DNA of 64,000 nt, taken from Dehalococcoidia bacterium. Lineage in GTDB: Bacteria > Chloroflexota > Dehalococcoidia > SZUA-161 > SpSt-899. Location of the stretch: assembly GCA_048539495.1 (NCBI GenBank), contig JBLYPS010000001.1, positions 82,038 to 146,037 on the forward strand. Reading direction: 5' to 3'. The notes under the pieces were generated by a model that saw nothing but the letters and a program-made list of their open reading frames with translations, searched no databases and was not told the DNA's origin. This document shows positions 9,810 through 62,251 of the stretch, in pieces. The translations under genes and the position numbers were made by a program. How positions within the stretch are numbered: the first letter of the stretch is position 1; every line of letters starts with the position of its first letter.

Positions 9810-12488
9810 ATGAATAGCAACGAGATCAGAGACGCTTTTCTGACGTTTTTCAGGGAAAAGGGGCATACGGTGCTGCCGAGTTCCTCCCTGGTGCCACATG
9901 GTGACCCGACACTGCTGCTGACCAGTGCGGGCGTGGTGCAAATTAAGCCCTATTTTATGGGGGAGGCCACTTCACCCAGCCCCCGCCTGGTGTCGTGCCA
10001 GAAATGCTTCCGCACCACTGACATTGATTCGGTCGGAGACGCCGGGCACCTGACTTTCTTCGAGATGTTGGGCAACTTCAGCGTGGGCGACTACTTCAAG
10101 AAGGAGGCCATCGCCTGGGCATGGGAATTCGTGACCGAACGTTTGCACCTGCCGGAGGAGCGCCTCTGGATAACGGTCTTCCTTGACGACGATGAGGCTT
10201 TTGATTACTGGCTCGATATCGGGGTACCTGGAGGGCGGATTGCTCGCTGCGGCGAGGAGGATAACTTCTGGGGACCTCCTGGAGACAGCGGTCCCTGCGG
10301 GCCGTGCAGTGAGATTCTGTATGACTTCGGTATTGGTTGTGGCGAGCCGGACTGCGGCCCCGCCTGCGGCTGCGGCCGCTTTTCTGAAATCTGGAATCTG
10401 GTCTTCACCCAGTACTACCAGGATGAACGGGGGAATCGCACCCCGCTGCCCAGGCCGAACATTGATACCGGCATGGGACTGGAGCGCACCGCAGCTATAA
10501 TGCAGGGCAAGAAGTCCGTTTATGAAACCGATCTGTTCAATCCCATCATGGATCGCATTTCCGCGATAACCGGACACAAACTGGAGTCGGGAGTCGGGAG
10601 TCGGGAGTCGGGAGTCCCCCTCCCATATAACGAAAGTGAGACCGTCGAGAGGGCGATGAGAGTCGTTGCCGAGCACGGGCGGGCAATTGCCTTTCTAATC
10701 GCCGACGGAGTAATCCCCTCCAACGAGGGCCGGGGCTATGTGCTGCGGCGGGTATTGCGGCGGGCGGTTCTCTTTGGCAAGAAGCTGGGATTCGATGAGC
10801 CTTTCCTCAGCGAGATAGCAAAGGTGGTCATCGAGCAAATGGGATGGCTTTACCCCGAACTTGCCACCAGCAAGGACTACATCATCAATACTATTGACCT
10901 GGAGGAAAGCAGATTCGATCAGACCTTGAATACCGGGATGAGATTGCTGGACGAAATAATGGCCCAAACTAAAGCGAGTGGCCTGGCGATACTTCCTGGC
11001 GAGCAGGCTTTCCGGCTTTACGATACTTACGGGTTCCCCAGGGAGATTACCTCCGCAATTGCTGCTGAGCATGGCCTATCCATGGACCTGGAAGGCTTTG
11101 GGCGAGAGATGGAGCGCCAGCGAGAGAGGGCGCGGGCAGCTCAGAAATTCGGGGGGGATATCAGCCAAAGTGAAGAATCGGCAGTCGTAGTGCGCTATCC
11201 ACCGGTTCGGTTTGTGGGTTACGACAAGCTAAGTCATGCGTCGAAGATCGCAGTGCTCCTGGTGGGTGGGCAGCAAGTGGAGGCTGCTTCTCAGGGGCAG
11301 GAGATCGAGGTAACGCTGTATGAAACCCCCTTTTATGGGGAGATGGGGGGGCAGGTAGGTGACATTGGCGAGGTCAAAGGGCCTCAGGGCAGGGTGATAA
11401 TTATCGGCGCCATAAGGCAAACCGACGACCTGGTGGTGCATCTGGGCAGGGTAGAAGAAGGAAGGGTTAGCGTTGGTGAGGAAGTTGTGGCGAAGGTCGA
11501 TTTTGAGCGTCGACTCGACATCGCTCGCAACCACACCGCCACCCACCTCCTCCAGGCAGCCCTGCGTCAGGTGCTGGGGGATCAAGTCCGCCAGGCAGGC
11601 TCGCTGGTCGCCCCGGACCACTTCAGATTCGATTTCACGCATCTTATCGCCCTGAGCAAAGAGGAGTTAAGAACGGTCCAGGGCATGGTAAATGAAAACA
11701 TCCGCCGGGATCTCCTGGTCTCCAGCCGAGTCTGCCCCTACAGTGATGCGATGACCGAAGGCGCACTGGCCTTCTTTGGGGAAAAATATGGGGATGAGGT
11801 TCGGATGCTGGAGATCAAAACCCCCGATTCTTCGGCGACGGTGAGCGCTGAGCTCTGCGGCGGTACCCATGTGCAAAGCACCGGAGAAATTGGACTTTTC
11901 CATATTACCAGTGAGAGGAGCATTGGTTCCGGGATGAGGCGCATCGAGGGGGTGACGGGAAGGGGGGCGGAAGCCCTCATTGCGGAGCGTTTTGCTGCGC
12001 TGGATGTGATCGCAGGCCAGCTTGAGGCGAGTCCCTCAGAGGCCGGGGAGAAGCTGGTGGCGCTTATCGCCGAGTTCAACGCCGAGCGCAAGCGAGCCAG
12101 AGGGTTAGAGAGCCAGCTTCTGCGTAGGACGGCCGAATCCCTTCTTCGTGAGGTCAGGCAGATAGACGGCATTAATGTCCTGGCAGCCAAGGTCTCCGCC
12201 TCAAACATGGAGCTATTGCGTCAGATGGGAGATTGGCTCAAGGATAAGCTCGGCAGCGCCGTGATTGTCTTAGGGGTGGTTCTGGAAGGAAATCCCCGGT
12301 TTTTGGCGATGGTTACCCCCGATTTAGTCGGCGATGGAATCCACGCCGGAGATATCGTGAAACAGGTGGCCCAGGTGACCGGGGGAGGTGGTGGGGGCAA
12401 AGCTGAAATGGCGCAGGCCGGCGGCAAGGACAGGAACAAGATCGATGAGGCACTGCGATTGGTTCCCAGGTTGATCGCGAAGGGGTAG
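9810..12488 (+). CDS. alaS: alanine--tRNA ligase
   Basis: 892 aa, AlaRS throughout (N-terminal catalytic domain, editing HxxxH/CxxxH region, C-terminal DHHA1 with the GGGGG motif). The ATG at 9810 is preferred over the GTG at 9798. Confidence 0.95.
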   Translation: MNSNEIRDAFLTFFREKGHTVLPSSSLVPHGDPTLLLTSAGVVQIKPYFMGEATSPSPRLVSCQKCFRTTDIDSVGDAGHLTFFEMLGNFSVGDYFKKEAIAWAWEFVTERLHLPEERLWITVFLDDDEAFDYWLDIGVPGGRIARCGEEDNFWGPPGDSGPCGPCSEILYDFGIGCGEPDCGPACGCGRFSEIWNLVFTQYYQDERGNRTPLPRPNIDTGMGLERTAAIMQGKKSVYETDLFNPIMDRISAITGHKLESGVGSRESGVPLPYNESETVERAMRVVAEHGRAIAFLIADGVIPSNEGRGYVLRRVLRRAVLFGKKLGFDEPFLSEIAKVVIEQMGWLYPELATSKDYIINTIDLEESRFDQTLNTGMRLLDEIMAQTKASGLAILPGEQAFRLYDTYGFPREITSAIAAEHGLSMDLEGFGREMERQRERARAAQKFGGDISQSEESAVVVRYPPVRFVGYDKLSHASKIAVLLVGGQQVEAASQGQEIEVTLYETPFYGEMGGQVGDIGEVKGPQGRVIIIGAIRQTDDLVVHLGRVEEGRVSVGEEVVAKVDFERRLDIARNHTATHLLQAALRQVLGDQVRQAGSLVAPDHFRFDFTHLIALSKEELRTVQGMVNENIRRDLLVSSRVCPYSDAMTEGALAFFGEKYGDEVRMLEIKTPDSSATVSAELCGGTHVQSTGEIGLFHITSERSIGSGMRRIEGVTGRGAEALIAERFAALDVIAGQLEASPSEAGEKLVALIAEFNAERKRARGLESQLLRRTAESLLREVRQIDGINVLAAKVSASNMELLRQMGDWLKDKLGSAVIVLGVVLEGNPRFLAMVTPDLVGDGIHAGDIVKQVAQVTGGGGGGKAEMAQAGGKDRNKIDEALRLVPRLIAKG
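10583..10624. repeat. half heptamer element inside alaS: (GAGTCGG)x5 plus a C-rich tail ccccctccc
   Basis: Tandem 7-mers read directly. Translated in frame as LESGVGSRESGVPLPY. No inverse arm follows. Confidence 0.7.
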
Positions 12489-22845: not shown

Positions 22846-23156
22846 GAGAGGATATCGCGATTTCAAGAAGAGTGGTTCTCCGTTTCCCACGTTCCCTGCT
22901 TACCGAAACTTGAGAAGAAAAGCGCTGAAGACAGTCTTGAAATGTCATGCATCTATCGAGGGATACATCAGGCGGTATCCCTCATTTTTTACTGCCCTGG
23001 AACCGAGACCTATCCGGGGAGATGCCCCCCGGATCACAAGGGAGATGTCGCGGGCTGCCGGGCGGTTAATGACAGGCAAGATGCCCGTCCTACCTCGCCT
23101 GAGGTGATTGTTGAGAATGGAGGGCGCGGTCAAGATCGCTCCGGTACAGGAGGAAT

Positions 23157-23462
23157 ATGTTTGCGGTGATTCTCTGCACTAGCCCGCGCGAGGAGGCCGG
23201 AAGGATAGCAATGGCCTTAGTGGAGGAAAAGCTGGTTGCCTGCGTGAATATCGGCGAGGTCAATTCTTACTTCAGGTGGGAAGGTGAGATGCAGGAGGAA
23301 GGGGAAGCTCTCCTGATAATAAAGACGAGGGCCGTGAAGGTGAGGGAGATCATAGGCCGGATTCGAGAATTGCACAGCTATGAGGTGCCGGAGATCATCG
23401 CTCTCCCGATTATCGATGGCCATGAAGGGTACCTGGATTGGGTGAGGGAATCGGTTGAATGA
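23157..23462 (+). CDS. cutA: divalent-cation tolerance protein CutA
   Basis: 101 aa. AVILCTSP...VACVNI...SYFRWEG...IIKT is CutA1 family. Confidence 0.85.
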   Translation: MFAVILCTSPREEAGRIAMALVEEKLVACVNIGEVNSYFRWEGEMQEEGEALLIIKTRAVKVREIIGRIRELHSYEVPEIIALPIIDGHEGYLDWVRESVE

Positions 23463-23532
23463 TGGAGTTTTCGGGGTTGTAACTGTTGACTAACATATTG
23501 ACTTTTATGCCTTCCTATGATATAATAAGACT

Positions 23533-24003
23533 ATGAAGCTAGCAGATTGGGCTCGTTCTCAAGGAATCACCTACAAGACAGCATGGCGTTGGTTTAAAGC
23601 TGGAATACTTCCTATACCAGCGGAGCAATTGCCAACCGGTACAATTCTAGTTTTCCCACCAACGCAGAATATAAATGACGGTGTTGCCCTTTATGCTCGG
23701 GTATCAAGTAATGACCAAAGGGATGATCTCACCAGGCAACTGGGGCGATTGGTGGAATATGCTAATAATGACAAGATGAAGGTAGTTAAATCAGTGGTAG
23801 AGGTAGGCTCTGGGTTAAACGGGCGGCGACCAAAATTAATACGATTGCTGCGTGATCCCGATATTTCTACTATCATAGTTGAACACCGTGACCGATTAGC
23901 TCGTTTTGGTTCTGAATATATTGAGGCCTCTCTAGTGGCTTCAGGAAGACGAGTGATTATCGTTGACCCAAGTGAGATGAAAGATGATCTAGCCCATGAT
24001 TGA
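23533..24003 (+). CDS. tnpA: IS607-type serine recombinase transposase TnpA
   Basis: MKLADWARSQGITYKTAWRWFKAG (HTH), then YARVSSNDQRDDLTRQ with the catalytic Ser. 156 aa. Confidence 0.85.
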   Translation: MKLADWARSQGITYKTAWRWFKAGILPIPAEQLPTGTILVFPPTQNINDGVALYARVSSNDQRDDLTRQLGRLVEYANNDKMKVVKSVVEVGSGLNGRRPKLIRLLRDPDISTIIVEHRDRLARFGSEYIEASLVASGRRVIIVDPSEMKDDLAHD

Positions 24004-24086
24004 TGTTTTAGTATCCTTTTGTGCTCGATTATATGGGAGGCGAGCAGCCAAGAACCGAGCTGAACGCGCTATAAAGGCAATGGATA

Positions 24087-25340
24087 ATGTTGATTAACCA
24101 AGCATATCGCTACGAACTAAAACCTAATAATGTCCAGGAAACGCTCCTAGCGAAACACGCCGGAACTGCTAGGTTCGCATGGAACTGGGCTTTGGCACAG
24201 AATAATAATACGAATGCCATTGCACAGCATCGGGAATGGAATGTCTGGAAACGGGAGAATGTGCCTTGGTGGACAGAGATATCCAAATGTGTGCCACAGG
24301 AGGCTTTCCGTGACCTCGATAGAGCGTTTAGTAATTTCTTTAGTATCTGGAGAGAAGCTAAGACCAACCCCAGTCTTAGGGCAAGAATAGCCAGGTCAAA
24401 GCCACGCAAGGATGGGAAGCCCTATGGCTATCCCAAGTTCAAGAAGAAAGGTGTGCATGACAGCTTTCATTTAAGGGGTGCTGTCCACGTCAAAGAGAGC
24501 CATGTACAGTTACCGAGATTAGGCACTATTCGTGTAAAAGAGAACACCAATGTTCAAGGCCGTATTTTATCGGTCACAGTAAGTCGTGAAGCGGATCGAT
24601 GGTTTGTATCATTGAGTGTGGAGAGAGAAAAGCCCGATCCAATTCCTATATCCGGCCCCATTATTGGAATTGACTTAGGTCTCGATTGCTTTGCCACGCT
24701 ATCTAATGGTGAGCATATTTATGCACCCAAGCCACTGAATAAAAGTCTCAAGCGGCTTAAGAGGGCATCTAAAAAACACTCACGCAAGCAGAAAGGCTCT
24801 AATAACCGGCGTAAGTCGGCTATGAGGTTGGCCCGTCTGCACCGGACTATTCGCAATCAGCGTCGGGATTTTCTGCACCAGGTGACGACGAAACTGGCGA
24901 AAACCAAGTCAGTGATTGTTGTCGAAGACCTGAACGTTAAGGGGATGGTGCGGAATGGTCGATTATCCCGACATATCTCAGACGTGGGGTGGGGTGAGTT
25001 TCAGCGGATGTTGGACTACAAGACGAAGTGGTGTGGTTCACATTTGGTTACCGCTGACCGCTGGTTCCCCTCATCCAGGATGTGTTCTACGTGCGGTTAT
25101 GTCATAGACGAGTTGCCACTTTCGGTTCGGAGATGGATGTGTCCCGTATGTAAAGTGGTGCATAACAGGGATGATAATGCTTCGTTGAACTTAGAGCATT
25201 ATTATACTACCGGGAGTTCCCCGGGAAGTCACGCCTGTGGAGATTCCTCTGGCGGCGGAACGGACGCAGTCTGGTCTACGAGCTACGGGTCTCGGAAGCA
25301 GGAATCAAACACCGATTATCCTGCTGGGATAAAAGGGTAA
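24087..25340 (+). CDS. tnpB: TnpB (OrfB) RNA-guided endonuclease-family protein
   Basis: 417 aa. N-terminal OrfB_IS605 region, RuvC-like residues and the C-terminal CxxC...CxxC (CSTCGY...CPVCKVV). Confidence 0.85.
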   Translation: MLINQAYRYELKPNNVQETLLAKHAGTARFAWNWALAQNNNTNAIAQHREWNVWKRENVPWWTEISKCVPQEAFRDLDRAFSNFFSIWREAKTNPSLRARIARSKPRKDGKPYGYPKFKKKGVHDSFHLRGAVHVKESHVQLPRLGTIRVKENTNVQGRILSVTVSREADRWFVSLSVEREKPDPIPISGPIIGIDLGLDCFATLSNGEHIYAPKPLNKSLKRLKRASKKHSRKQKGSNNRRKSAMRLARLHRTIRNQRRDFLHQVTTKLAKTKSVIVVEDLNVKGMVRNGRLSRHISDVGWGEFQRMLDYKTKWCGSHLVTADRWFPSSRMCSTCGYVIDELPLSVRRWMCPVCKVVHNRDDNASLNLEHYYTTGSSPGSHACGDSSGGGTDAVWSTSYGSRKQESNTDYPAGIKG

Positions 25341-25345
25341 GTTTT

Positions 25346-27091
25346 GTGGAACGGTACAATCTAAGAATAGGTATCATCGGCGGTGGGCAACTGGGTAAGA
25401 TGATGACCCAGGAAGCGAAGAAGATGGGGTTTTATGTTACCATACTGGACCCCACGCCGAACTCCCCGGCCAGTCAACTGGCTGATGAGCAGCTCGTCGG
25501 CGATTTTCATGACCGGAATAAGATAAGAGAGCTTGTCACCAGGAGCGACGTAACCACCTACGACATCGAAAACATTGACGTAGGTGCCTTAAAAGAGCTC
25601 GTCGAGGCGGGACATGTTATCCACCCTTCTCCACAGATACTGGAGATCATCCAGGACAAGTGGAAACAAAAAAAGGTACTGGAGCGCAGCGGTATCCCTA
25701 TCCCGAGGTACAAGAAGGTCGAGGGGGATGCCCTCGCTGCTGCTGTTGAGGGATTCGGGTTTCCGGTGGTGCAGAAGGCCTGCCGGGGAGGCTATGACGG
25801 GAGGGGGGTATTCGTGATTCGTACCAGAGACGATATAGGAAAGGCACTCAAAGTGGAGTCCTTCCTTGAAGAATTTGTCGAAATCGAGAAGGAGCTCGCG
25901 GTAATGGTGGCAAGGAGTACTACCGGTGAGATCAAATGCTATCCGTTAGTGGAGATGGTCTTCGATGAGGCGGCCAACATCTGCGATATGGTTGTCGCTC
26001 CCGCCCTGGTGGAGCAAAAAATTCAAGACGAGGCCAGGCGAATAGCGGTTGCCGTGGTAGAGCCACTTGGTGGAGCAGGTATCTTTGGGATAGAGATGTT
26101 CTTAAGCAAAGCGGGGAATGTCCTGGTGAACGAGATCGCCCCCCGGCCTCATAATTCGGGGCACTATACCATAGAGGCTTGCGTCACTTCTCAATTCGAA
26201 CAGCACATTCGGGCGATCATGGAACTCCCGTTGGGCTCGACGGAACTGCTCACCCCAGCGGTAATGATCAACATTCTGGGTGAGGAAGGGCATGAGGGGC
26301 CGGCAATATTCCAGGGGATTCGAGAGGCTTTGCTCATCCCTGGAGCGAGTCTGCATCTGTATGGGAAAAGGGTTACCAGACCATTCCGCAAGATGGGACA
26401 TGTAACAGTAGTGGATAAGGACGCCGAGAACGCTTTCGAGAAAGCCCAGAGGATAAAGACACTTCTGCGAGTGGTTTCCTCTGACGAGTCGAGAGTCAAG
26501 AGTCAAGAGTCGAGAGTCGGGGAGGGGCGGGGGACTCCAGACTCCAGACTCCAGACTCCAGACTCCAGACTCCAGACTCGTAAGATGGTGGCAAGGGTAG
26601 GAATCATCATGGGGAGCGAGTCCGACCTCCCGGTGATGGAAGAGGCGGGGAAACTGCTGGAGGAGTTCGGGATTGGCCACGAACTTACCATTGTCTCCGC
26701 CCACCGGACGCCGGAGAGGATGTTTCAATATGCTCGCCAAGCGGAGGGGAAGGGGATTGAAGTGATAATCGCCGGGGCCGGCGGAGCCGCTCATCTCCCC
26801 GGCATGGTGGCCTCAATAACCCCCCTTCCGGTAATCGGTGTGCCGATCGAGACAACCCCCTTGAAAGGGCTGGACTCCCTTTATTCCATCGTCCAAATGC
26901 CGGCAGGAGTCCCGGTGGCGACCGTGGGGATAAATAACGGCCACAATGCCGCAATCCTGGCGATGCAGATTCTGGGGGTGAAGTATCCGCAGATCAGGGG
27001 GAAGGTGAAGGAGTATAAGCAGAGATTGCAGGAGAAAGTCGAGGAGATGGCGCGCAGGGTTGAGCAAAGAAGGAGGCAAGAGGAAGCATGA
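25346..27091 (+). CDS. purK-purE: PurK-PurE fusion: N5-carboxyaminoimidazole ribonucleotide synthase fused to N5-CAIR mutase
   Basis: N-terminal ATP-grasp (IGIIGGGQLGKMM...) followed by PurE (VGIIMGSESDLPVMEEA...GAGGAAHLPGMVAS). The two are joined by a linker encoded by heptamer element 26486..26580. Probable GTG start. Confidence 0.85.
   Translation: MERYNLRIGIIGGGQLGKMMTQEAKKMGFYVTILDPTPNSPASQLADEQLVGDFHDRNKIRELVTRSDVTTYDIENIDVGALKELVEAGHVIHPSPQILEIIQDKWKQKKVLERSGIPIPRYKKVEGDALAAAVEGFGFPVVQKACRGGYDGRGVFVIRTRDDIGKALKVESFLEEFVEIEKELAVMVARSTTGEIKCYPLVEMVFDEAANICDMVVAPALVEQKIQDEARRIAVAVVEPLGGAGIFGIEMFLSKAGNVLVNEIAPRPHNSGHYTIEACVTSQFEQHIRAIMELPLGSTELLTPAVMINILGEEGHEGPAIFQGIREALLIPGASLHLYGKRVTRPFRKMGHVTVVDKDAENAFEKAQRIKTLLRVVSSDESRVKSQESRVGEGRGTPDSRLQTPDSRLQTRKMVARVGIIMGSESDLPVMEEAGKLLEEFGIGHELTIVSAHRTPERMFQYARQAEGKGIEVIIAGAGGAAHLPGMVASITPLPVIGVPIETTPLKGLDSLYSIVQMPAGVPVATVGINNGHNAAILAMQILGVKYPQIRGKVKEYKQRLQEKVEEMARRVEQRRRQEEA
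26486..26580. repeat. heptamer-armed palindromic element: (GAGTCRA)x5, core ggaggggcggggg, then (ACTCCAG)x6
   Basis: Read directly. The arms are reverse-complement related through GAGTC/GACTC. Translated in frame as [37 protein letters not shown]. Confidence 0.85.
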
Positions 27092-27755: not shown

Positions 27756-28865
27756 ATGGCCAGAATCTTAGACGGGTATCAAACGGAGGCGATAAAGGAA
27801 GCGGCATCCCTCATTCAAAAAGGGGGGGTCGTGGCTTTCCCGACGGAGACGGTCCACGGGCTCGGGGCGGATGCCTTCAACCCCAAAGCCGTAGCCCTCA
27901 TTTTCGAAGTTAAGAAGAGACCCCGTTTTGATCCTCTCATCGTCCATATCGCTGAACTTTCCGATGTGAAGAAGGTTTGTCTTCACGCCGATGATCGAGC
28001 AGGGAAAGTGATGGAGTGGTTCTGGCCGGGGCCTTTGACCGTGGTGCTTCCGAAGACGCCGGAGGTGCCGGATATTGTGACGGCGGGACTTCCCACTGTC
28101 GCCGTGCGCTTACCCTCCCATCCGGTTGCCTTAAGCCTCATCCGCGAGGCACGGACGCCCATCGCCGCTCCCAGTGCCAATCTCTTTGGCTATCTCAGCC
28201 CAACGACAGCGGAGCATGTAAATGAGCAGCTCGGCAGCGCAATCGAGATCATCCTCGACGACCAACAGTCGGCAGTCGGCAGTCGGCAGTCCGGGGCGGG
28301 GTGGGGGACTAGCGACTATCGACTATCGACTTGGAATCGAGTGGGGGTGGAGTCCACCATTATTGACCTCTCTGAAGAGGAACCCGTCCTCCTGCGCCCC
28401 GGTGGAACGCCTCTGGAGGAAATCGAGAGGGTCATCGGGAGGGTAAAGATCCCGCCTCATGATCCCCAGCAACCCCGTTCTCCGGGGCAGCTTCCCCATC
28501 ACTATTCCCCCCGCACCCCCCTCAAGATTCTGCTTGATGAAGAATTGAGTATTGAGTATCGAGTTTTGAGTTTTGAGGAGGGGGGAGGGACTCCAGACTC
28601 CAGACTCCAGACTCCAGACTCCAGACTCGAGAGGGTTGGCCTTCTGGCATTCCAACGTCCCCGGGAGGGAGATTTTGCGGCAATTGAAGTTCTTTCCCCC
28701 TCCGGAGACCTCCGTGAGGCGGCGGCGAACCTGTTTGCGGCGCTCCACCGGCTTGATTCTGCCGGACTTGATCTTATCCTCGCCGAACCGGTTCCCGAGG
28801 GGGGGCTCGGCCGGGCGATCATGGATCGACTGCGCCGGGCAAGTGGAGTCCTGAGTCGAAGGTAA
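27756..28865 (+). CDS. tsaC: L-threonylcarbamoyladenylate synthase (TsaC/Sua5 family, with Sua5 C-terminal domain)
   Basis: VAFPTETVHGLGADAF..., PLIVH, GPLTVVL and APSANLFG motifs. It carries two in-frame heptamer elements, at 28267..28333 and 28546..28630. Confidence 0.85.
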   Translation: MARILDGYQTEAIKEAASLIQKGGVVAFPTETVHGLGADAFNPKAVALIFEVKKRPRFDPLIVHIAELSDVKKVCLHADDRAGKVMEWFWPGPLTVVLPKTPEVPDIVTAGLPTVAVRLPSHPVALSLIREARTPIAAPSANLFGYLSPTTAEHVNEQLGSAIEIILDDQQSAVGSRQSGAGWGTSDYRLSTWNRVGVESTIIDLSEEEPVLLRPGGTPLEEIERVIGRVKIPPHDPQQPRSPGQLPHHYSPRTPLKILLDEELSIEYRVLSFEEGGGTPDSRLQTPDSRLERVGLLAFQRPREGDFAAIEVLSPSGDLREAAANLFAALHRLDSAGLDLILAEPVPEGGLGRAIMDRLRRASGVLSRR

Positions 28866-29273: not shown

Positions 29274-29479
29274 AAACATTTGAAGTTGTTTTAACAAAAT
29301 CATATATTGTTAGAATAAAAGCAGAGAGCGAAAAGAAAGCAAAAGAATATTCAGAGTTATTTACGGGCGATATTCAGGATATTTCATCGATTGATTATAG
29401 AAAAAAGTTCAATTTTGAAATAGAAGATATTAATTGTAAGATAAATGAATCTTTTGAGGTTCAAGAAGAATTACTATGA
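29270..29479 (+). CDS. hypothetical small protein (69 aa), translationally coupled
   Basis: ATGA overlaps at both ends. AT-rich island codon usage. Confidence 0.35.
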   Translation: MKTFEVVLTKSYIVRIKAESEKKAKEYSELFTGDIQDISSIDYRKKFNFEIEDINCKINESFEVQEELL

Positions 29480-30336
29480 AAAAGATTAAAACACAAGTAT
29501 TATTGGGTGATTGTAAAGATATTTTGAAAAATTTTGAAAATGATTGCATTGATTTAATATTTACATCCCCTCCTTACGCGGATAGACGTGTTCATTCATA
29601 TGGTGGGATTAAACCTGAAGAGTATGTTGACTGGTTTTTATTTAGAAGTGAACAATTTTTAAGGGTATTAAAACCAGAAGGTACATTTATATTAAATATT
29701 AAGGAAAAAGCAGAAAAAGGTGAGCGACATACCTATGTTTTAGAACTAATTTTAGCATTAAGAAAACAGGGTTGGTTATGGACAGAAGAATTTATTTGGC
29801 ATAAAAAGAATTGTTATCCTGGAAAGTGGCCAAATCGTTTTCGTGATGCTTGGGAAAGATTGCTACAATTCAATAAAACTAAAAAGTTTAAAATGTTCCA
29901 AGAAACAGTTAAGATACCTGTTGGTGACTGGGTTGAAGATAGATTAAAGAACTTAAGTGAAAAGGATAAAATAAGGTTTGAATCAAGGTCAAAAAGCGGC
30001 TTTGGGAAAAATATTTCAAATTGGTTAAAGCGTGACAAAGTTTATCCTACAAATGTATTACATTTGGCAACTGAATGTAGTAATAAAAATCATAGTGCTG
30101 TTTTTCCAGAAGGTTTACCAGAATGGTTTATAAAACTGTTTACAGAAGAGGGAGATACTGTATTAGATCCCTTTATGGGTTCAGGCACAACATTAAGAGT
30201 TGCCAATAGAATAAGAAGAAATTCAATAGGAATTGATATTGTTTCAGAATATTATGAAATGGTGAAATCTGAAATAAAAGAGTGTGAATATTTATTATTT
30301 GAACCAAAGGCGAAATATGAAATTAAATCTAAATGA
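29476..30336 (+). CDS. DNA methyltransferase, beta-class N6-adenine/N4-cytosine (PF01555-like)
   Basis: Motif IV TSPPY near the N-terminus. HSAVFPEGLPEWFIKLFT followed by motif I DPFMGSGTT near the C-terminus. This circular-permuted order defines the beta class. Confidence 0.85.
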   Translation: MKKIKTQVLLGDCKDILKNFENDCIDLIFTSPPYADRRVHSYGGIKPEEYVDWFLFRSEQFLRVLKPEGTFILNIKEKAEKGERHTYVLELILALRKQGWLWTEEFIWHKKNCYPGKWPNRFRDAWERLLQFNKTKKFKMFQETVKIPVGDWVEDRLKNLSEKDKIRFESRSKSGFGKNISNWLKRDKVYPTNVLHLATECSNKNHSAVFPEGLPEWFIKLFTEEGDTVLDPFMGSGTTLRVANRIRRNSIGIDIVSEYYEMVKSEIKECEYLLFEPKAKYEIKSK

Positions 30337-31063: not shown

Positions 31064-31086
31064 TGAGTTTCTATCCGTAAATTAGA

Positions 31087-32826: not shown

Positions 32827-33968
32827 AGGCGATACTGGTATTAGAAGATGGGACGGTGGTTGAGGGAAAGGGATTTGGATCTATTGGCAAAGCCCGGGGA
32901 GAGATCGTCTTCGCCACCGGAATGAGCGGCTACGTTGAATCATTAACTGATCCCTCCTATGCCGGCCAGACGCTGATGTTCACCTACCCCTTGATAGGGA
33001 ATTATGGGGTCAATGAGGAGGACTATGAATCGGATGGAATAAAGGTGGAAGGGATTGTGGTAAGGGAAGTCTGCCACCGGCCGAGCAACTGGAGATCCCA
33101 GAAGAATCTGGAGGAGTTTGCGCTTGAATTCCAGACCCCCGGTATTTGTGGAATCGACACCCGTCGCCTCACCAGAAAGATCAGGACCCATGGAACGATG
33201 AAAAGCGTCCTTCAGACGTTTGCCGGAGGTGAGGAGGTGAACCTGGAGGCTTTGAAGAGGGAAGTTAGGGAACAGAAGGGCATCTCCGAATTGAATCTGG
33301 TGGGGGGAGTCACCACGGTCGGGGCTAAACGAGTCAAGAGTCAAGAGTCGAGAGTCACGGGGAGGGGGACTCCAGACTCTGGACTCTGGACTCTGGACTC
33401 CAGATATGAGGTGGTGCTCGTAGACTGCGGTGCCAAGAGGAGCATCACGGAGAATCTACTGTGCCGGGGAATAAACGTCACCCTTCTTCCTTTCAACACT
33501 TCAGCGGAGGAAATTCTAGGTTATAATCCCGATGCGGTGTTGATTTCCAATGGCCCGGGCGACCCGGCGGTGGTGAAGGAAACCATCGCCACGGTGAGTA
33601 AGCTCATCGGCAAAACCGTGCTTTACGGAATCTGCCTCGGGCAGCAGATCATCTCCCTTGCACTGGGTGCCCGAACATATAAGCTGAAGTTCGGGCATCG
33701 GGGTTTGAATCAGCCGGTGAAAGACTTTGAAACAGGGAGGGTCTTTATTTCCACCCAGAACCACGGCTTCGCCGTTGCCGAGGAGGGGCTGGCGGAAATC
33801 GGGCTCGAGGTGACCCACATCAATCTGAATGATAATACCATTGAGGGCTTGAAACATAAGGAGCTCCCCATCAGAATGGTTCAGTATCACCCGGAAGCCG
33901 GACCCGGCCCGCATGACACCTATTCCTTCTTCGATTCGTTGATGGACGACATTTCCCGGAGGCATTAA
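32823..33968 (+). CDS. carA: carbamoyl-phosphate synthase small subunit (glutamine amidotransferase)
   Basis: MKAILVLEDGTVVEGKGFG.., GICLGQQ (catalytic Cys) and the HPE motif. Heptamer element 33331..33404 lies in frame at the inter-domain linker. Confidence 0.9.
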   Translation: MKAILVLEDGTVVEGKGFGSIGKARGEIVFATGMSGYVESLTDPSYAGQTLMFTYPLIGNYGVNEEDYESDGIKVEGIVVREVCHRPSNWRSQKNLEEFALEFQTPGICGIDTRRLTRKIRTHGTMKSVLQTFAGGEEVNLEALKREVREQKGISELNLVGGVTTVGAKRVKSQESRVTGRGTPDSGLWTLDSRYEVVLVDCGAKRSITENLLCRGINVTLLPFNTSAEEILGYNPDAVLISNGPGDPAVVKETIATVSKLIGKTVLYGICLGQQIISLALGARTYKLKFGHRGLNQPVKDFETGRVFISTQNHGFAVAEEGLAEIGLEVTHINLNDNTIEGLKHKELPIRMVQYHPEAGPGPHDTYSFFDSLMDDISRRH

Positions 33969-35619: not shown

Positions 35620-38469
35620 ATGCCAAGAAGGTCTGATATAGAAAGGATCCTGCTCATCGGGTCCGGCCCGATCATCATCGGGCAGGGCTGCGAGTTCGAT
35701 TACTCCGGGAGCCAGGCTTGCAAGGCGCTGCGGGAGGAGGGCTATGAAGTCATTCTGGTCAATTCGAACCCGGCAACGATCATGACCGACCCGGAGATGG
35801 CAGTGGCGACTTACATCGAACCATTGACCCCAGAGGTGATCGAAAAAATAATCGAGAAAGAAAGACCGGACGCTCTCCTCCCCACCCTCGGCGGTCAAGT
35901 TGGACTGAACATCGCCGCCGAGCTCTCCGAACGGGGAGTCCTCCAGAAATATAACGTGGAGCTTATCGGGGCCAAGTTCGAGGCAATCAGAAAGGCCGAA
36001 GATAGGATTCTCTTCAAGGAGGCAATGGAAAGGATAGGCCTGCGGACTCCGCGGAGCAAAGAGGCTTATTCGGCGGAAGAGGCGACAAAAATTGCCGAGG
36101 AGATCGGCTACCCCGTGGTTATCAGGCCGGCCTACACCCTGGGGGGAACCGGGGGCGGAATAGCCTTCAACCGGGAGGAGCTGGAGGTGATATCCGCCAG
36201 GGGCATAGAGTTCAGCCGCATCGGGCAGGTTCTTATTGAGGAGTCGGTCATCGGTTGGAAGGAATATGAGCTTGAGGTGATGAGGGACCTGGCCGACAAT
36301 GTGGTTATCATCTGCTCGATAGAGAACCTGGACCCCATGGGGGTTCACACCGGCGACAGCATCACCTGCGCTCCAGCCCAGACTTTGACCGACAGGGAAT
36401 ATCAGGAGATGCGCGATGCTTCCATAAAGGTCATGCGAGAAATTGGTGTTGAAACCGGGGGCTCGAATATTCAGTTTGCCGTAAATCCCCAAAACGGAGA
36501 AATGGTAGTCATCGAAATGAATCCCCGGGTGAGCCGAAGCTCCGCCCTAGCATCAAAGGCCACCGGATTCCCCATTGCTAAGATCGCCGCCAAACTCGCC
36601 GTCGGGCTCACCCTGGATGAGATACCGAATGATATAACGAAGGAAACCCCCGCCTCTTTCGAGCCAACCATAGATTATGTAGTGGTCAAGATGCCCCGAT
36701 GGCCCTTCGATAAGTTCCCCGAGGCGGATAAGACGCTCACCACGCAGATGAAATCGATCGGCGAGGCGATGGCACTGGGGAGGACATTTGAGGAAGCCTT
36801 GCAGAAGGCGGTGAGGTCGTTGGAGATCGGGAAGTACGGATTAACGAGTCGAGGGTCAAGAGTCGAGAGTCCAGAATCACGGGGAGAGGGACTCCAGTTG
36901 ACGGGCAAGATGCCCGTCCTACCAGACTCCAGACTCCAGACTCCAGATAGTCTTGGGGAGGAATTGCTCAACAAGCTGAGATTCCCGGTCGCCGAAAGAA
37001 TCTTCCTCGTCGCAGAGGCTTTCAAAAGGGGAATTCGTGTGGAAGAGGTGGCCGAACTCACCAGGATCGACCCCTGGTTTCTGGAGAAGGTCAAGAACAT
37101 CACGAGTCTAGAGTCTAGAGTCGAGAGACTCCAGTTGACGGGCAAGATGCCCGTCCTACCAGACTCCAGACTCCAGACTTCAAATCTCATCCCCCGGGAG
37201 CTAATGCTCGAGGCGAAGAGGATGGGTTTCTCCGATAGACAACTCGCTGATCTCTTGAAGACCGATGAGCTGGAGCTTCGGGGCAAAAGAAAGGAAATGG
37301 GGATAGTTCCAACATATAAGCTGGTGGATACCTGCGCCGCCGAGTTCGAGGCCAAGACTCCTTATTACTACTCTTGTTATGAAGATGAGGATGAAGTCGA
37401 GGTAACGCCAAGAAAGAAAATGCTCATAATCGGCGGGGGGCCGAACAGGATAGGGCAGGGTATTGAGTTTGACTATTGCTGCGTTCAGGCGGTTTTTGCC
37501 CTCAAGGAAGAGGGGTATGAAACCATAATGGTAAATTGCAATCCAGAGACGGTGAGCACAGACTACGACACCGCGGATAGACTATACTTTGAGCCTTTGA
37601 CCTTCGAGGATGTCTTAAACATCATCGAAAAAGAAAAGCCCGATGGAGTGATTGTTCAGTTCGGCGGTCAGACGCCTTTGAATCTGGCTATCCCTCTGGA
37701 GAAAGCGGGGGCGAGAATAATAGGAACCTCCACCAATTCCATTGATATGGCCGAAGATAGAAAAAGATTCAGCGCGCTCTTGCTAAGATTGGGCATTCCT
37801 CAGGCTGAGAATGGGACCGCTCTCTCCCTTGAGGAGGCGCTGAAGATAGCAGCAAGGATTGGTTACCCTGTTCTGGTCAGGCCTTCCTATGTGCTGGGTG
37901 GGAGGGGAATGGAGATAGTTTACGACGAGGAAACTCTGGTGAGGTACATGCGGGCAGCAATAGAAATATCTCCGGGAAAGCCGGTCCTGGTAGACAAGTT
38001 CTTGGAAGAGGCCACCGAGGTTGAGGTGGATGCCATCTTCGATGGGGAGGATCTCATGATCGGAGGGATAATGGAGCACATCGAGGAAGCGGGGATCCAT
38101 TCCGGTGACAGCGCCTGTGCTTTGCCCCCCCAGAACCTGGCCACTGAGACCCTAAGGGTGATAAGGGATTATACCGACAAGATCGCCCGGGAGCTGGATG
38201 TGAGAGGGTTGATGAACATCCAGTTTGCGGTGAAGGACGGGAGGGTGTATGTCCTGGAGGTGAATCCAAGAGCGTCCCGGACTGTGCCCTATATTAGCAA
38301 GGCGAGCGGCGTTCCCCTGGCGAAGATAGCCGCTAAAGTGTTGCTGGGCAAAACCTTAAAGGAACTGGGGGTGATGCGAGTCGAGAGTCGTCGAGAGTCG
38401 AGAGTCGGGGAGGGGTGGGGGACTCCAGAGCGAAGCGTCTCCAGACTCCAGACTCAAAACTTCCTGTAG
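35620..38469 (+). CDS. carB: carbamoyl-phosphate synthase large subunit, N-terminal about 90% (frame ends inside a heptamer element)
   Basis: Both ATP-grasp halves (two GSGPI(V)IGQG.EFDYSG motifs) and the oligomerisation domain, with in-frame elements at 36846..36946 and 37103..37183. The frame terminates at 38469 inside element 38377..38454. Confidence 0.85.
36846..36946. repeat. heptamer-armed element with REP core (TTGACGGGCAAGATGCCCGTCCTAC at 36898..36923) inside carB
   Basis: (GAGTCGAG-type 7-mers), the REP hairpin with its CTAC tail, then (AGACTCC)x3. In frame: [36 protein letters not shown]. Confidence 0.85.
37103..37183. repeat. second heptamer-armed element with REP core (37135..37160) inside carB
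   Basis: gagtctagagtctagagtcgag, then the REP, then agactccagactccagact. In frame: [26 protein letters not shown]. Confidence 0.85.
38377..38454. repeat. degenerate heptamer-armed element at the carB frameshift point
   Basis: gagtcgagagtcgtcgagagtcgagagtc, core ggggaggggtggggg, then gactccagagcgaagcgtctccagactccagactc. The arm units are irregular. The two carB ORFs overlap here in different frames. Confidence 0.8.
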
Positions 38470-39182
38470 CGGTAAAGGAGGCCGTTTTCCCGTTCTCCAA
38501 GTTCCCCGAAGTGGATCCGATCCTCGGTCCGGAGATGAAATCGACCGGCGAGGTGATGGGAATCGATGCCGACTTCGGTGTAGCTTTCTACAAGGCTCAG
38601 CTCGGTGCCGGAATGAATCTACCTGCTGAAGGCACGGTGCTCATCACGATCGCCGATAAGGATAAAGCGCGAGTAGTTCCGGTCGCCAGAAAATTCCAGG
38701 AGCTAGGCTTCGAGATCCTGGCCACCTCGGGAACTCAGGCTTGTCTCTCGGACCACGGAATCGAAAGCAAGAAGGTCTTCAAGATTCACGAGGGGAGGCC
38801 GCACATCGTGGATTACGTGAAGAACAAAATGGTGGACATAATCATAAACACCCCGCTGGGCAAAAAGGCAAGATACGACGATAGTTATATCAGAAAATCA
38901 GCGGTGCGGTACAACGTTCCCTATTTCACCACCGTCTCCGGGGCGGGGGCGGCGGTGATGGGGATAGAGGCGATAAAGAACCAAAAGGTGTTTTTCGAGC
39001 CTATACAAACATATCATGCCAAAACGAGTCGAGAGTCTAGAGTCGAGAGTCGGGGAGGGGTGGGGGACTCCAGACTCCAGACTCGAAAGGGGGAGGAACC
39101 TAATGCGCAGCGATACGTTGAAAAAAGGTCTGCAACGGGCACCGCATCGGTCACTACTCAAGGCTTGTGGGGTGATGGATGA
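38415..39182 (+). CDS. carB: carbamoyl-phosphate synthase large subunit, C-terminal MGS-like domain fragment (separate frame)
   Basis: After the element: [43 protein letters not shown]...MGS domain. The likely biological end is near 39030 (EPIQTYHAK). The open frame runs through element 39026..39086 into ilvD. Confidence 0.7.
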
Positions 39183-40752
39183 AGATATGGAGAAACCCTT
39201 CATTGCGGTGGTAAATTCATGGACCGAGATAGTGCCCGGACATATTCATCTTCGGGGGATAGCCGATGCCGTGAAAGAGGGCATAAGAGAGGCCGGGGGA
39301 CTGCCCTTCGAGTTTCACACCATCGCCGTATGCGATGGCCTGGCCATGGGGCACGATGGGATGCGATATTCCCTGCCATCGCGGGATGTTATCGCCAACT
39401 CCATCGAAATAATGGTGAGGGCCCATGCCCTGGACGGGATGGTGATGATCCCCGCCTGTGATGAGATCGTTCCCGGACACTTGATGGCAGCAGGCCGATT
39501 GGATATCCCCACCATCGTGGTTACCGGGGGGCCGATGTTGCCGGGGGAGTTCAAGGGCAAGAATGTGGATATAATTGATGTCTTCGAGGCGGTGGGCATG
39601 GTCAGCGATGGTAAGATGGGGATGGATGATCTAAAGGAGTTAGAGGGCTGTGCCTGCCCTGGTGCCGGGACCTGCGCCGGGATGTTTAGTGCCAATACCC
39701 TGGCCTGTGGGGTGGAGGCCCTCGGTCTGTCGCTGCCCGGTTGTGGTTGTGCCCACGCCGTGGATGCCAGAAAGATAAGGATTGCCCGGCAAAGCGGGAA
39801 GGAGATTGTGAGCCTGACAAGCCGTAATATCACCGCCAGAGAGATAATGACTTACGAAGCCTTTCTTAACTGGATCCGGGTGTCCCTGGCGGTAGCGGGG
39901 TCAACCAACGATGTGCTGGAGATACTGGCGATCGCCAGGGAAACCGGGATTGAGATGTCCCTAGATATATTCGATGAGCTGAGTAGAACCACCCCACATA
40001 TCTGCAATATGCGCCCCGGCGGCTCGTATACCTTGTGGGACCTGGATAGGGCGGGCGGGGTTCCGGCGATAATGAAACGGCTTGAGCCGCTGCTGAACCT
40101 GGAGTGTCTTACGGTTAGCGGCAGGACCGTGGGTGAAAACATCGCCTCGGTGAAGATCGCTAACGAGGATGTGATCAGGCCCCTCGACAATCCCGTTCAT
40201 GGTAGCGGTGGGTTAGCCATACTCTACGGAAGCCTGGCTCCTAAAGGGGCGGTAGTGAAACAGACAGCGGTGGTAGAGAGTATGCTACGAACAAGAGGGC
40301 GGGCTCGGGTCTTTGACTCCGAGGAGGAGGCTTTTGAGGCGATAACCGGCGGGAAGATACATCGAGGCGATGTGGTGGTTATTCGCTACGAAGGCCCGAA
40401 GGGGGGGCCGGGGATGAGGGAGATGCTTGGTCCCACCTCGGCTATCAGCGGCAGAGGGCTTGCCGACTCCGTGGCACTGGTCACCGATGGCAGATTCTCG
40501 GGCGGAACCCGTGGTCCGTGTATCGGACACATATCGCCTGAAGCGGCCGAGGGAGGGCCGATCGCCCTTGTTGCCGAGGGCGACTATATTTCTATAGACA
40601 TCCCCAACCGCCGGATAGACCTGGAGATCGACCAGACCGAATTTGAGAAGCGCAAAAGGGATTGGCGGCCCAGGAAAAAGGAGGTCAGGGGATACCTGCG
40701 GGAATATAGACAGGGTTGCTTGAGCCCCGAGCATGGTGCTAGCATGAAATAG
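39098..40752 (+). CDS. ilvD: dihydroxy-acid dehydratase
   Basis: [23 protein letters not shown]... and CDGLAMGH motifs. RBS gggagga lies before the ATG at 39098. The track ORF starts earlier by reading through element 39026..39086. Confidence 0.9.
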
Positions 40753-40907
40753 TCTGGAGTCTGGAGTCTGAAGTCCCCCTTTAGCCTTCAGCCTATCCAC
40801 CTGACTTGACTCTTGACTCGCATTGGGGGTGAGAGCTTTGGGAAATGCATAGGTGAAATCTGAACATAAATCAGAGGTAAAGCCAAAAACTAAGGAGGTC
40901 AAAAGAA

Positions 40908-60652: not shown

Positions 60653-62251
60653 TACCCGCTTCAGCCTGGGGTTGGGGGTGATACCGGGGATTCTGCCTCG
60701 CTTGGCGATGGGCTTACCTTCAACCTCGTGCAGATCGGCGGTGAAATTGATCGGCCTGGTATCGCTGATATAGCTTCCCACGGCAAAGGTATCGACCGGT
60801 GCCCCACTGTCCAGGAAGTATCTGATTCGCTCCGGGTCGATGCCCCCGCTGACGTATATCCTGACATCCTTGAAACCGGCAAGGTCAAGCCTGGCCCTGG
60901 TCTCCTTTACCAGATCGGCGGTGACCCGGCCTCTTTCGGAAGGCGTATCGAGCCTTATCCCCTGCAGCCTTCCACCCATTGCCCGGGCTACGATGATGCT
61001 CTCCTCGGGCTCGTCGCGGAAGGTATCTACCAAGGCAATGCGGGGTACCTCCGGGGGCATGTGCTTGTCAAAAGCGAGGGTGGCCCTGGCGGTGTCACCC
61101 ATGACTATGATCAGGGCGTGAGGCATGGTGCCCATCGGCTCCTGTCCGGCAAGCTTAGCGCCGGCTGTAGAGGCACAGCCGCCACATCCCCCGACGATGG
61201 CAGCGTACTCCATTACCCCAACTACCGAGGGGTGAACATGGCGAGCACCAAAGCTGATGACCGGGATTCCCTGGGCCGCTTGCACGCACTCCCGAGCAGC
61301 AGTGGCCCAGCCGCTGCAATGCGCCAGAATACCCAGATAGACGGTCTCATATATGGCATAAGATTGATAGGGCGCAGTTATGCGCAACACCACTTCTTTT
61401 TTCTGGAAGGAGTCTCCCTCAGAGAGAGCCCATACCTCGATGGGGTCTGAAGTCTGGAGTCTGGAGTCTGGAATCCCCCTCCCCTCGACTCTTGACTCTT
61501 GACTCTTGACTCTTGACTCTTGACCGGTAAGCACCCGGGAAAGCAGGTCGAGAACTTCATGCATGCCGCAGAGGATACCCTCACTCCTGGGAAAGACCTC
61601 CATGGTGGCAACCGGATTGAGTCCCTCGCGCTTGAGGATTTCTTTGGTGCGCACAAAGTAGATGTCGGTGGTCTCGCCGGAGAGGACGGACTCCGCGACC
61701 GTAAAGTGAGGACGGGGGATTTCCAGTGGCGTCGGCGGGATGAGTTTGGCGCCGAGGATTCTTTCCATGTGATCGAGGGCGAAACGGTGTGCTTGTTGAT
61801 CCATAGAGGCCACGCAGTCGGTGGGAACTTCGACCGTGTAGCCGCGGTTTCTGGCATCGGCGACGGTATGCAGAACGCAGATGTTGGTGCAAACGCCGCA
61901 GACGATGAGCTTCTCCGGTGCCAGCTCCTTTAGTTTCCCTTCGAGCGCGCTCTCGAAGAAACCGCTGAATCGATTCTTGGGGATGATCTCGCCGGGAATC
62001 GCAGCCAGCTCGGGGATGACCTCGGCTTCTCCTGTTCCGGCGATGCAGTGGGGAGGGAACATCTCGAATTCGAGGTCGTCCGGGGTATGATTATCGCAGA
62101 TAAAGAAAACCCTGGACCCCTGAGATAATTCTTGTTCTAACCGTCTCTTAACATTCGGAATGATATTGCGTGCTAAATCGCCACAATAAAGGGGGTATCC
62201 TTTCTCCAGGAAGCCCCTTAGCATGTCTATCACAAGCACTGCAGTAGTCAT
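60647..62251 (-). CDS. pncA-pncB: nicotinamidase (isochorismatase-fold, PncA) fused to nicotinate phosphoribosyltransferase (PncB)
   Basis: N-terminus: AVLVIDMLRGF...KLIVCGVCTNICVLHT (catalytic Cys) ..YTVEV. C-terminus: NAPRTase-like (...GTMPHALII...YVSGGID...). The two are joined by a linker encoded by element 61447..61524 ([24 protein letters not shown]). Confidence 0.8.
   Translation of the reverse strand: MTTAVLVIDMLRGFLEKGYPLYCGDLARNIIPNVKRRLEQELSQGSRVFFICDNHTPDDLEFEMFPPHCIAGTGEAEVIPELAAIPGEIIPKNRFSGFFESALEGKLKELAPEKLIVCGVCTNICVLHTVADARNRGYTVEVPTDCVASMDQQAHRFALDHMERILGAKLIPPTPLEIPRPHFTVAESVLSGETTDIYFVRTKEILKREGLNPVATMEVFPRSEGILCGMHEVLDLLSRVLTGQESRVKSQESRVEGRGIPDSRLQTSDPIEVWALSEGDSFQKKEVVLRITAPYQSYAIYETVYLGILAHCSGWATAARECVQAAQGIPVISFGARHVHPSVVGVMEYAAIVGGCGGCASTAGAKLAGQEPMGTMPHALIIVMGDTARATLAFDKHMPPEVPRIALVDTFRDEPEESIIVARAMGGRLQGIRLDTPSERGRVTADLVKETRARLDLAGFKDVRIYVSGGIDPERIRYFLDSGAPVDTFAVGSYISDTRPINFTADLHEVEGKPIAKRGRIPGITPNPRLKRVL
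61447..61524. repeat. heptamer-armed element (reverse orientation) inside pncA-pncB: (AGTCTGG)x3, core aatccccctcccc, (TCGACTC/TTGACTC)x6
   Basis: Read directly. In frame on the minus strand. Confidence 0.85.

Follow-up and report, generated by a model that had tools for sequence, protein, structure and literature searches.

The stretch of DNA analysed here (hereafter the window) comprises 64,000 nucleotides (nt) of an uncultured Dehalococcoidia bacterium (GenBank assembly GCA_048539495.1, contig JBLYPS010000001.1, positions 82,038 to 146,037 of the forward strand). It carries purK and purE, which are separate genes in the nearest relatives, as a single open reading frame (ORF) joined by a hairpin-forming element of tandem 7-nt units. 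We consider it highly probable that this is a recent fusion, still polymorphic in the population, and that it was created by the repeat element. Gene fusions are usually seen long after their origin; here both states coexist in otherwise identical strains and the causal change is visible. In-frame insertion of small repeats into genes is already known, and it is the coexistence of fused and unfused alleles that makes the present case attractive.

The purK-purE reading frame and its linker

The fused ORF (25346..27091, forward strand, stop codon included) appears in the ORF list with 581 amino acids, and Pfam finds all four domains of the two enzymes within it, with E-values from 7.5e-67 to 4.8e-20. 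PurK is complete at residues 7-363 (pre-ATP-grasp, ATP-grasp and PurK_C) and PurE, represented by the AIRC domain, is complete at residues 417-563. An N-terminal PurK followed without interruption by a C-terminal PurE is also the domain order of the bifunctional ADE2-type enzymes of fungi, plants and some bacteria. The PurK portion (25346..26478, forward strand) is colinear with the separate purK of the relatives in blastn comparisons with contigs L001, L002, L145 and L146. The PurE portion (26585..27091, forward strand) begins at an ATG that is the start codon of purE in the relatives and encodes Met414 of the fusion. The ratio of nonsynonymous to synonymous substitution rates (dN/dS) is about 0.11 for purK and 0.16 for purE, and neither part bears a sign of decay. 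The G+C content of the window is 52%, and the database proteins most similar to its own are labelled Dehalococcoidia or Chloroflexota.

The comparison of filled with empty sites carries most of the argument. In two Dehalococcoidia single-cell genomes of 83-85% amino-acid identity (L001 and L002), purK encodes 383-385 amino acids ending in LRVVSEEA. At the empty sites of these genomes and of contigs L146 and L147 the DNA reads GTGGTTTCAGAGGAGGCAT-A[G/A]-ATGG, which gives VVSEEA, a stop codon and, in frame with purK, the purE ATG. The C-terminus is SEEA or SEEG in every PurK homologue at 80-89% identity, and wherever the DNA of an unfused relative is known, the ATG of purE adjoins the stop of purK in the same frame. 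The relatives' GTGGTTTC-AGAGGAGGCAT-AGATGG corresponds in the window to GTGGTTTC-CTCTGAC-(94-nt element)-GTA-AGATGG, so that about 104 nt (26479-26582) replace the 11 nt of AGAGGAGGCAT and the region is 93 nt (31 codons) longer. Lost with these 11 nt were the three terminal codons of purK, part of its stop codon and GAGGAGG, the Shine-Dalgarno sequence that in the relatives lies 5 nt upstream of the purE ATG. No Shine-Dalgarno-like sequence was found within 12 nt upstream of ATG 26585 in the window. An earlier note on this DNA had proposed that the element bridged the gap between the purK stop and the purE start to make one ORF, and the empty sites in L001, L002, L146 and L147, together with the homologues at 80-89% identity, bear this out. 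The event was a replacement and not a pure insertion. The finding that the note had named as fatal to its reading, relatives with the same fused gene, an ordinary linker and no element, was not encountered among the nearest relatives, which are unfused with the stop adjoining the ATG.

The heptamer element that the note had placed at 26486-26580, between PurK and PurE in a single ORF, is confirmed by Tandem Repeats Finder and Pfam. It is preceded by a left junction, CTCTGAC (26479..26485, forward strand as are all parts of the element), which in the alignments replaces the relatives' AGAGGAGG, i.e. the last purK codons and the purE Shine-Dalgarno sequence. The left arm (26486..26518), translated as ESRVKSQESRV, consists of five GAGTC cores at 7-nt spacing in units of GAGTCGA or GAGTCAA (GAGTCNN x4.7, reported by Tandem Repeats Finder as (GAGTCGA)x4.9 at 26486-26519). 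A G-rich spacer, GGGGAGGGGCGGGG (26519..26532), translated as GEGRG, lies at the tip of the hairpin and recurs at 38407 and 39052. The right arm (26533..26579) is a perfect (GACTCCA)x6.7 with 15 translated residues, and is followed just 5' of the purE ATG by a TAA (26581..26583) that is now out of frame. Arms and spacer are free of stop codons in all three forward frames, and the linker between PurK and PurE amounts to 31-33 residues. The linker peptide quoted in the note was given with three TPDSRLQ units, of which there are two, and with a start slightly out of register. Antisense ORFs also run through the elements, for example one of 230 amino acids at 26102-26794 on the reverse strand, since for the most part neither strand of the arrays contains stop codons; gene-calling programs will probably be misled by them.

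The inverted arms are predicted to fold into a segmented hairpin (26478..26590, forward strand), in which 5-bp GAGUC/GACUC helices alternate with 2x2 internal loops. The RNA fold reaches -58.8 kcal/mol (z = -4.3, with none of 200 shuffled sequences folding as well) and the DNA fold -25.8 kcal/mol (z = -2.5). The base of the predicted hairpin encloses the purE ATG, which is paired in the stem. At the protein level, AlphaFold, given an alignment of 37 sequences, yields confident models of both enzymes (mean predicted local distance difference test score, pLDDT, 84). Values below 50 are confined to residues 1-3 and 381-413, the latter being exactly the repeat-encoded segment, which agrees with the disordered linker that the note had expected. 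At the Rfam gathering threshold the element matches no family; the sole Rfam matches in the window are a cobalamin riboswitch (7177-7315, reverse strand) and a tRNA (16999-17071, forward strand).

Probable origin, spread and predicted consequences of the fused allele

The identical linker allele is present in four assemblies, represented by the window, L024, the contig encoding P0241, and L145; the element-bearing assemblies are that of the window, GCA_018725325.1, the metagenome-assembled genome encoding MBT9162854.1, and GCA_018725425.1. They differ from each other by single-nucleotide polymorphisms (SNPs) elsewhere, although L024 is 99.6% identical to the window. The fused protein of the window itself is not on public record, which indicates that the window is an independent assembly. 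Fused and unfused forms also share the 90%-identity cluster of the nearest database protein, which holds the fused P0001, P0241 and P0243, all with the same linker, and the unfused pair P0244/P0245. The closest contrast is between L145, which is fused and has the element, and L146 and L147, which are unfused with TAA-ATG: over the compared blocks of 3.2 kb and 1.0 kb, L145 and its unfused counterparts are 99.1-99.4% identical. The 36 mismatches between L145 and L146 fall into three clusters, outside which the two contigs are identical. One cluster flanks the element, and there L145 has the window allele at every informative site, on a backbone that is 5.5% diverged from the window. SNP phasing of the window, L024, L145, L146 and L001, together with the clustering of mismatches, delimits this recombination patch to a minimum of 26383..26651 and a maximum of 26335-26737. 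A window-type patch on a diverged backbone indicates that the fused allele of L145 came from a window-like donor in a patch of 270-400 bp.

The two other clusters in L145, at 3008-3071 (8 sites in 64 nt) and 4450-4683 (12 sites in 234 nt), contain no repeat. This suggests that short-patch recombination is frequent in the population. Homing-like spread or biased gene conversion driven by the element was considered and dropped on the same ground: repeat-free patches were exchanged too, and ordinary short-patch recombination suffices.

We propose the following sequence of events. An element of a dispersed family, with GAGTCNN and GACTCCA arms on either side of a GGGGAGGGG-type spacer, now occupies the purK/purE junction, where it overwrote the terminal codons and stop of purK and GAGGAGG, the ribosome-binding site of purE. 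As the element is stop-free, ribosomes initiated at purK would have to continue into purE, and the predicted product of 581 amino acids would consist of PurK, about 33 disordered residues and PurE. With the purE Shine-Dalgarno sequence lost, its ATG at the base of the hairpin and no stop codon before it, PurE is most likely made only within the fusion, and we infer that the ORF yields one active polypeptide. The frame in which the genes were joined looks like a one-in-three accident of heptamer number, and a single unit gained or lost would give back two ORFs. Ordinary homologous recombination in short patches then carried the fused allele from lineage to lineage. The comparative evidence supports well the conclusion that the element created the fusion. 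The birth of a bifunctional enzyme is directly testable with two natural alleles. Hairpins of 7-nt repeats, normally treated as intergenic curiosities, can on this evidence supply ready-made disordered linkers and rewire the translation of an operon, the stop and the ribosome-binding site being lost in one step.

Other explanations must be weighed against a fusion made by the element. Tandem repeats are error-prone in short-read assemblies, and an error of one unit would shift the frame; the heptamer number might accordingly be wrong, with purK really ending, for example at the TAA at 26581, and purE being separate. The frame break at a copy in carB of the same window (carB-3, see below) could be such an error. 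Against this, the arrays and the linker are exactly alike in four independent assemblies that differ by SNPs elsewhere, the same arm lengths arguing against an assembly artefact, and the longer array measures only 47 nt, which ordinary reads span. We regard an artefact as extremely unlikely. It is hardly credible that the fusion came before the element and that the repeat later took the place of an ordinary linker. Fused PurK-PurE proteins are known in other Chloroflexi and in eukaryotes, and elements have replaced native linker sequence at other sites of this genome, but none of the nearest relatives is fused and in all of them the stop adjoins the ATG; these include contigs that equal a fused strain outside three recombination patches. 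The fused homologues are just 46-55% identical, with unrelated linkers. Unfused nearest relatives and distant fused ones with unrelated linkers together argue that the fusion does not predate the element.

The strength of the hairpin raises the question of a role at the RNA level, in which the element would act mainly between cistrons as a stabiliser of mRNA, an RNase site or a translational brake, processed mRNA or initiation within the ORF would provide most of the PurE, and the fused protein would be a by-product. About three quarters of the GAGTC-type hairpins listed from metagenomes (~92 of 120) lie outside long ORFs, which fits a REP-like or terminator-like role, and the G-rich spacer resembles a Shine-Dalgarno sequence. 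However, nothing of that kind lies 5-12 nt from ATG 26585, which the predicted stem itself engages in base pairs, the element has no Rfam match, and in the absence of a stop codon translating ribosomes would unwind the hairpin and go on; this explanation is therefore unlikely. A phase-variable (contingency) locus, at which slippage toggles the gene between fused, two-gene and truncated states at appreciable frequency, is suggested by a unit length that is not a multiple of three. The arms would change length by slippage, and simulated gain or loss of GACTCCA units gives three frame states: the fusion persists only at 0 or +/-3 units, +1 or -2 units bring the TAA at 26581-26583 into frame directly before the ATG, which recreates the stop-then-ATG arrangement, and -1 or +2 units cause termination 8 codons into purE. 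The varying arm lengths of the carB-1 copy between relatives and the non-fusing frames of the carB-3 and carB|ilvD copies also fit such switching. Among the four element-bearing assemblies, however, heptamer number at purK|purE does not vary and frame-switching length variants are absent, despite flanking divergence of up to 5.5%, and purine biosynthesis genes are atypical targets of phase variation; we consider appreciable toggling very unlikely.

A recent fusion made by the element remains the explanation that we prefer, and several points weigh against it. The fused polypeptide is a prediction from the reading frame, ribosomes could be delayed or arrested by so stable a hairpin within the ORF, some initiation may take place internally at Met414, and a second purE may lie elsewhere, the view being limited to 64 kb of the genome. 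No target-site duplication was seen, nor a suitable linked transposase among the window ORFs scanned. The low dN/dS values mostly reflect history before the fusion. In addition, an IS607-type element has cut off the first five codons of purK, which makes expression of the window copy less certain; in L145 the fusion is present with an intact purK 5' end.

The IS607-type element lies at about 23478-25352, inside the first purK codons, and encodes a serine recombinase (23533..24003) and TnpB (24087..25340). The ancestral sequence ATGGAGTTTTCGGGG remains at 23462-23478, and GTG 25346 is the present start of purK. L001, L002, L145 and L146 lack the IS607-type element.

Copies of the element in other genes of the window

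The element at purK|purE is one of a family. The motif GACTCCAGACTC occurs 33 times in the window with at most one mismatch, against 0.37 expected. Perfect arrays of at least three units number 10 at period 7 and 0 at periods 4-6 and 8-12, and no such perfect arrays were found in 221 kb of unrelated control loci. The arrays are paired in inverted orientation around a short spacer. At least 10 copies in the window are of the GAGTC type, besides other unit types. The GAGTC/GACTCCA type with a GGGGAGGGG-like spacer is found at purK|purE, at one of two sites in tsaC (tsaC-2), in carA, three times in carB, at the carB|ilvD junction, 3' of ilvD, in an ORF with QRPTase domains and, as a half element, in alaS. 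Other units with the same architecture are CAGTCGG/GACTATC, AGTGATT/CAATCAC and GGTAGCG/CGCTACA. At the five sites where a net gain against relatives can be computed it is 93, 66, 66, 51 and 75 nt, in each case divisible by three.

The copies that the earlier note had pointed out in carA (33331..33404) and tsaC (28267 and 28546) are real in-frame gains against L001/L002, of +51, +66 and +66 nt. In tsaC, the first copy (tsaC-1, 28266..28331, forward strand) has CAGTCGG/GACTATC arms around the spacer GGGGCGGGGTGGGG and lies in frame between YrdC and Sua5_C, where it adds 66 nt relative to L001. The second (tsaC-2, 28541..28628, forward strand), with a TTGAGT-type left arm and a GACTCCA right arm, adds a net 66 nt in frame inside the Sua5_C envelope. 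The carA copy (33329..33404, forward strand) occupies the linker between the domains, in frame, with a net gain of 51 nt. Two of the three carB copies, all on the forward strand, are in frame and contain a nested 24-nt hairpin: carB-1 (36846..36947, net +75 nt) and carB-2 (37104..37179), the latter at a site where the relative L061 lacks an element. The third, carB-3 (38378..38455), changes the frame, so that carB falls into an ORF of 949 amino acids (35620..38469) and another of 255 (38415..39182). Further copies lie at the junction of the carB stop and the ilvD start (39024..39084, forward strand), without fusion, and just 3' of ilvD (40751..40819, reverse strand, intergenic). On the reverse strand are also the in-frame copy of the isochorismatase-QRPTase ORF (61441..61524), inside the QRPTase_N envelope, and a half element of one arm and a C-rich spacer (10581..10624), in frame in the catalytic domain of alaS.

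The note had concluded that insertions within genes are tolerated only at domain boundaries. This fits purK|purE, carA, tsaC-1 and carB-1, which lie between Pfam domains; the copies in alaS, QRPTase_N, Sua5_C (tsaC-2) and CPSase_L_D3 (carB-2) lie inside Pfam envelopes, presumably in loops, and make the rule too strict.

The carB region illustrates how such elements differ between relatives. Contig L061, 87% identical to the window and syntenic with it over carA, carB and ilvD, has an intact carB of 1147 amino acids. In L061, hairpins of other heptamer units occupy both the carB-3 site and the carB|ilvD junction, the latter with the unit AGGCTGN/NAGCCTA and ending in an overlapping TAATG stop-start. 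L061 also has a composite nested element at carB-1 and none at carB-2. In the window, the carB frame reads through the junction copy to about 45 codons past the ilvD ATG (which lies at ~39103), in a different frame. At carB-1, L001 has a miniature element, ACGACTCGAGAGTCGA-GGGGAGGGG-GACTCCAGACT, with about 2 + 1.5 units against 5 + 5 in the window, which indicates that this copy is ancestral and that its arms have changed length since. At the carB-3 site, the informative carB C-terminal homologues are P0121-P0123, most of the others being fragments on short contigs. Repeat peptides are present in frame in P0121 and P0122 and lacking in P0123. An exact look-up of the 949-amino-acid ORF gave no public record, and the frame break at carB-3 may reflect a genuine split of the gene, a pseudogene or an error of sequencing.

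A second small repeat accompanies the family. This 24-nt hairpin, TTGACGGGCAAGATGCCCGTCCTA, has a 19-nt core, GACGGGCAAGATGCCCGTC, present in 7 copies in the window against 0 expected (sites 36898-36921, 37135-37158, 12496-12612, 22553-22571 and 23071-23089). Two carB elements contain it, nested after GACTCCAG, and at 12496-12612 it is arrayed in tandem (43 bp x2.7). In addition, a 10-nt insertion, AGCGAAGCGT, with the GCGAAGC mini-hairpin motif, stands after GACTCCAG in right arms at 38425-38434 of the window and in two metagenome relatives, near 2060 in L120 and at carB-1 of L061; it shifts the frame, 10 not being a multiple of three.

Other features adjoin these genes. A restriction-modification island (29476-31728) with an N6/N4 DNA methylase and EcoO109I-like and TdeIII-like endonucleases is situated between tsaC and the next conserved gene and is lacking in L001 and L002. 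An archaeal-type phosphoenolpyruvate carboxylase gene (PEPcase_2, 34013-35482) stands between carA and carB, which are adjacent in L001. The ORF at 60647-62281 (reverse strand) combines an isochorismatase-family domain with the N and C domains of QRPTase.

Relation to known repeats and wider distribution

Small repeats fused in frame to ORFs have been described as RPE in Rickettsia, BOX/RUP/SPRITE, and enterobacterial and Anabaena miniature inverted-repeat transposable elements (MITEs), some of which extend gene ends (PMC3184786). The window element resembles this class as a dispersed, non-autonomous hairpin repeat that is sometimes translated in frame without destroying the host protein: it is multicopy (at least 10 GAGTC-type copies) with hairpin potential (z = -4.3), and its copies preserve the frame in loops and linkers, carB-3 excepted. 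Whereas RPEs and MITEs are unique sequences of 100-400 bp, the window element consists of tandem 7-nt units and a 14-nt spacer, so that its length and frame can change by slippage; being made of heptamer arrays, it is not expected to be homologous to the RPE consensus. The passages of the review consulted treat the extension of gene ends and insertion in coding sequence, and we noticed in them no joining of two enzyme genes (PMC3184786). Transposition, as of a MITE, was considered and is not favoured: the arms are inverted, but the flanks, TTTCCTCTGAC and GTAAGATGG, contain no direct repeat, and native sequence was replaced, not duplicated. No target-site duplication was found at any filled-versus-empty pair compared, and no HUH/RAYT (Y1) transposase among the 20 window ORFs scanned with Pfam. 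The only mobile-element genes noted in the window are the IS607 serine recombinase and TnpB, which have no heptamer ends. MIRU repeats also sit between operon genes, with frames that overlap the flanking stops and starts. Their units are 40-100 bp rather than heptamers, and the review describes their ends as overlapping neighbouring genes of a polycistron, with no mention of a fusion (PMC3184786).

REP and REPIN hairpins are extragenic and associated with a RAYT (Y1 HUH) transposase gene; many window copies lie inside genes. Over-represented heptanucleotide repeats are known from other bacteria, namely the heptamers of Calothrix and Nostoc, GGGAATC in Xanthomonas and TAACTGA in Beggiatoaceae (PMC4692102, PMC4679880). 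The window shares with these simple sequence repeats the dominance of 7-nt tandem arrays, seen here as over-representation of period 7, a copy number that varies between close relatives, seen here at carB-1, and occasional inverted pairs with the capacity to form stem-loops (PMC4692102, PMC4679880). The published arrays, however, lie essentially between genes, their role is discussed in terms of regulation or G-quadruplexes, and those of TAACTGA contain stops (PMC4692102, PMC4679880), whereas in the window the arrays always come as inverted pairs with a conserved spacer between them, have no stops on the coding strand and are translated in housekeeping genes. The tandem repeats of Borgs likewise evolve rapidly, are recent within ORFs and add disordered segments; as described, however, they are direct repeats that have no hairpin partner and belong to an extrachromosomal element of archaea (PMC9879509), not to housekeeping genes of bacteria.

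The small dispersed repeats of cyanobacteria are reportedly hairpins of 21-27 nt nested inside tandem heptameric repeats (Elhai et al. 2008). Such nesting resembles the 24-nt hairpin in two of the carB elements, not the fusing element, and both phylum and sequence differ.

The known bifunctional PurK-PurE proteins differ from the window fusion in their linkers. The fused Chloroflexi homologues (541-565 amino acids) and the eukaryotic ADE2 type are 46-55% identical to the window protein and have short non-repeat linkers, such as TAQHPPQETVLKLP in P0014. Common descent with them is not indicated, as the window gene nests among unfused orthologues (80-89%); judged by these comparisons, the window fusion is independent and derived. 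The viability of the fused architecture elsewhere makes it plausible here as well. In the literature covered, from which subscription journals were excluded, we found no description of heptamer-array hairpins as translated linkers or as joining two enzyme genes, and the exact motif returned only unrelated mammalian oligonucleotides.

Beyond the window, a metagenome scan with an exact pattern (three GAGTCNN units, 8-30 nt, three GACTCNN units) found GAGTC-type hairpins in at least 119 contigs, with G+C contents from 43% to 71%. Among the matches listed, the clear in-frame cases are in PurL, IF-2, PriA, an AccD/AccA ORF and a BcrAD/DUF2229 protein, and all of these except PurL share the G-rich spacer of the window. 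The PurL hairpins occupy the same site in three contigs of 46-54% G+C (L101 6824-6899, L133 2076-2151 and L071 3599-3713), in frame between YSRPMR and LLASPNI, a common position that points to a shared old insertion or a preferred site. A phmmer search of a representative library with the linker peptide gave 21 matches; the ten inspected were largely low-complexity repeats resembling TPDSRLQ or ESRVQSP, with no host genes among them.

The same class of element thus stands in frame in PurL, IF-2, PriA, CarA/B, TsaC and AlaS, in the window or in metagenome contigs. It is possible, though we hold this only tentatively and rather doubt it, that GAGTC-type and related heptamer hairpins form a widespread, undescribed class of ORF-compatible repeats that colonise the linkers and junctions of housekeeping genes across several bacterial phyla and generate new disordered linkers, gene fusions (purK-purE) and gene splits (carB). 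The hairpins may then be stop-free on one strand, encode peptides rich in Gly, Ser, Arg and Pro in every frame and turn over in place, and purK-purE may be a fusion caught at the polymorphic stage; if so, this allele would be a natural experiment on how fused enzymes arise. If general, such elements would contribute, so far unnoticed, both to variation in protein length and to errors of annotation among uncultured bacteria.

The same exact-pattern scan also hit one contig from a viral collection (L025, IMGVR_UViG_3300035688_000092); as to paired heptamer arrays, this contig has at least 7 of them within 14 kb, for example at 402-510, 849-926, 5566-5645, 6728-6820, 8881-8963 and 9652-9747. Their units are GAGAGTT/CTCCCAA, AGAGTCC/CTCTGGA and TTGAGAG/CTCTCGA.

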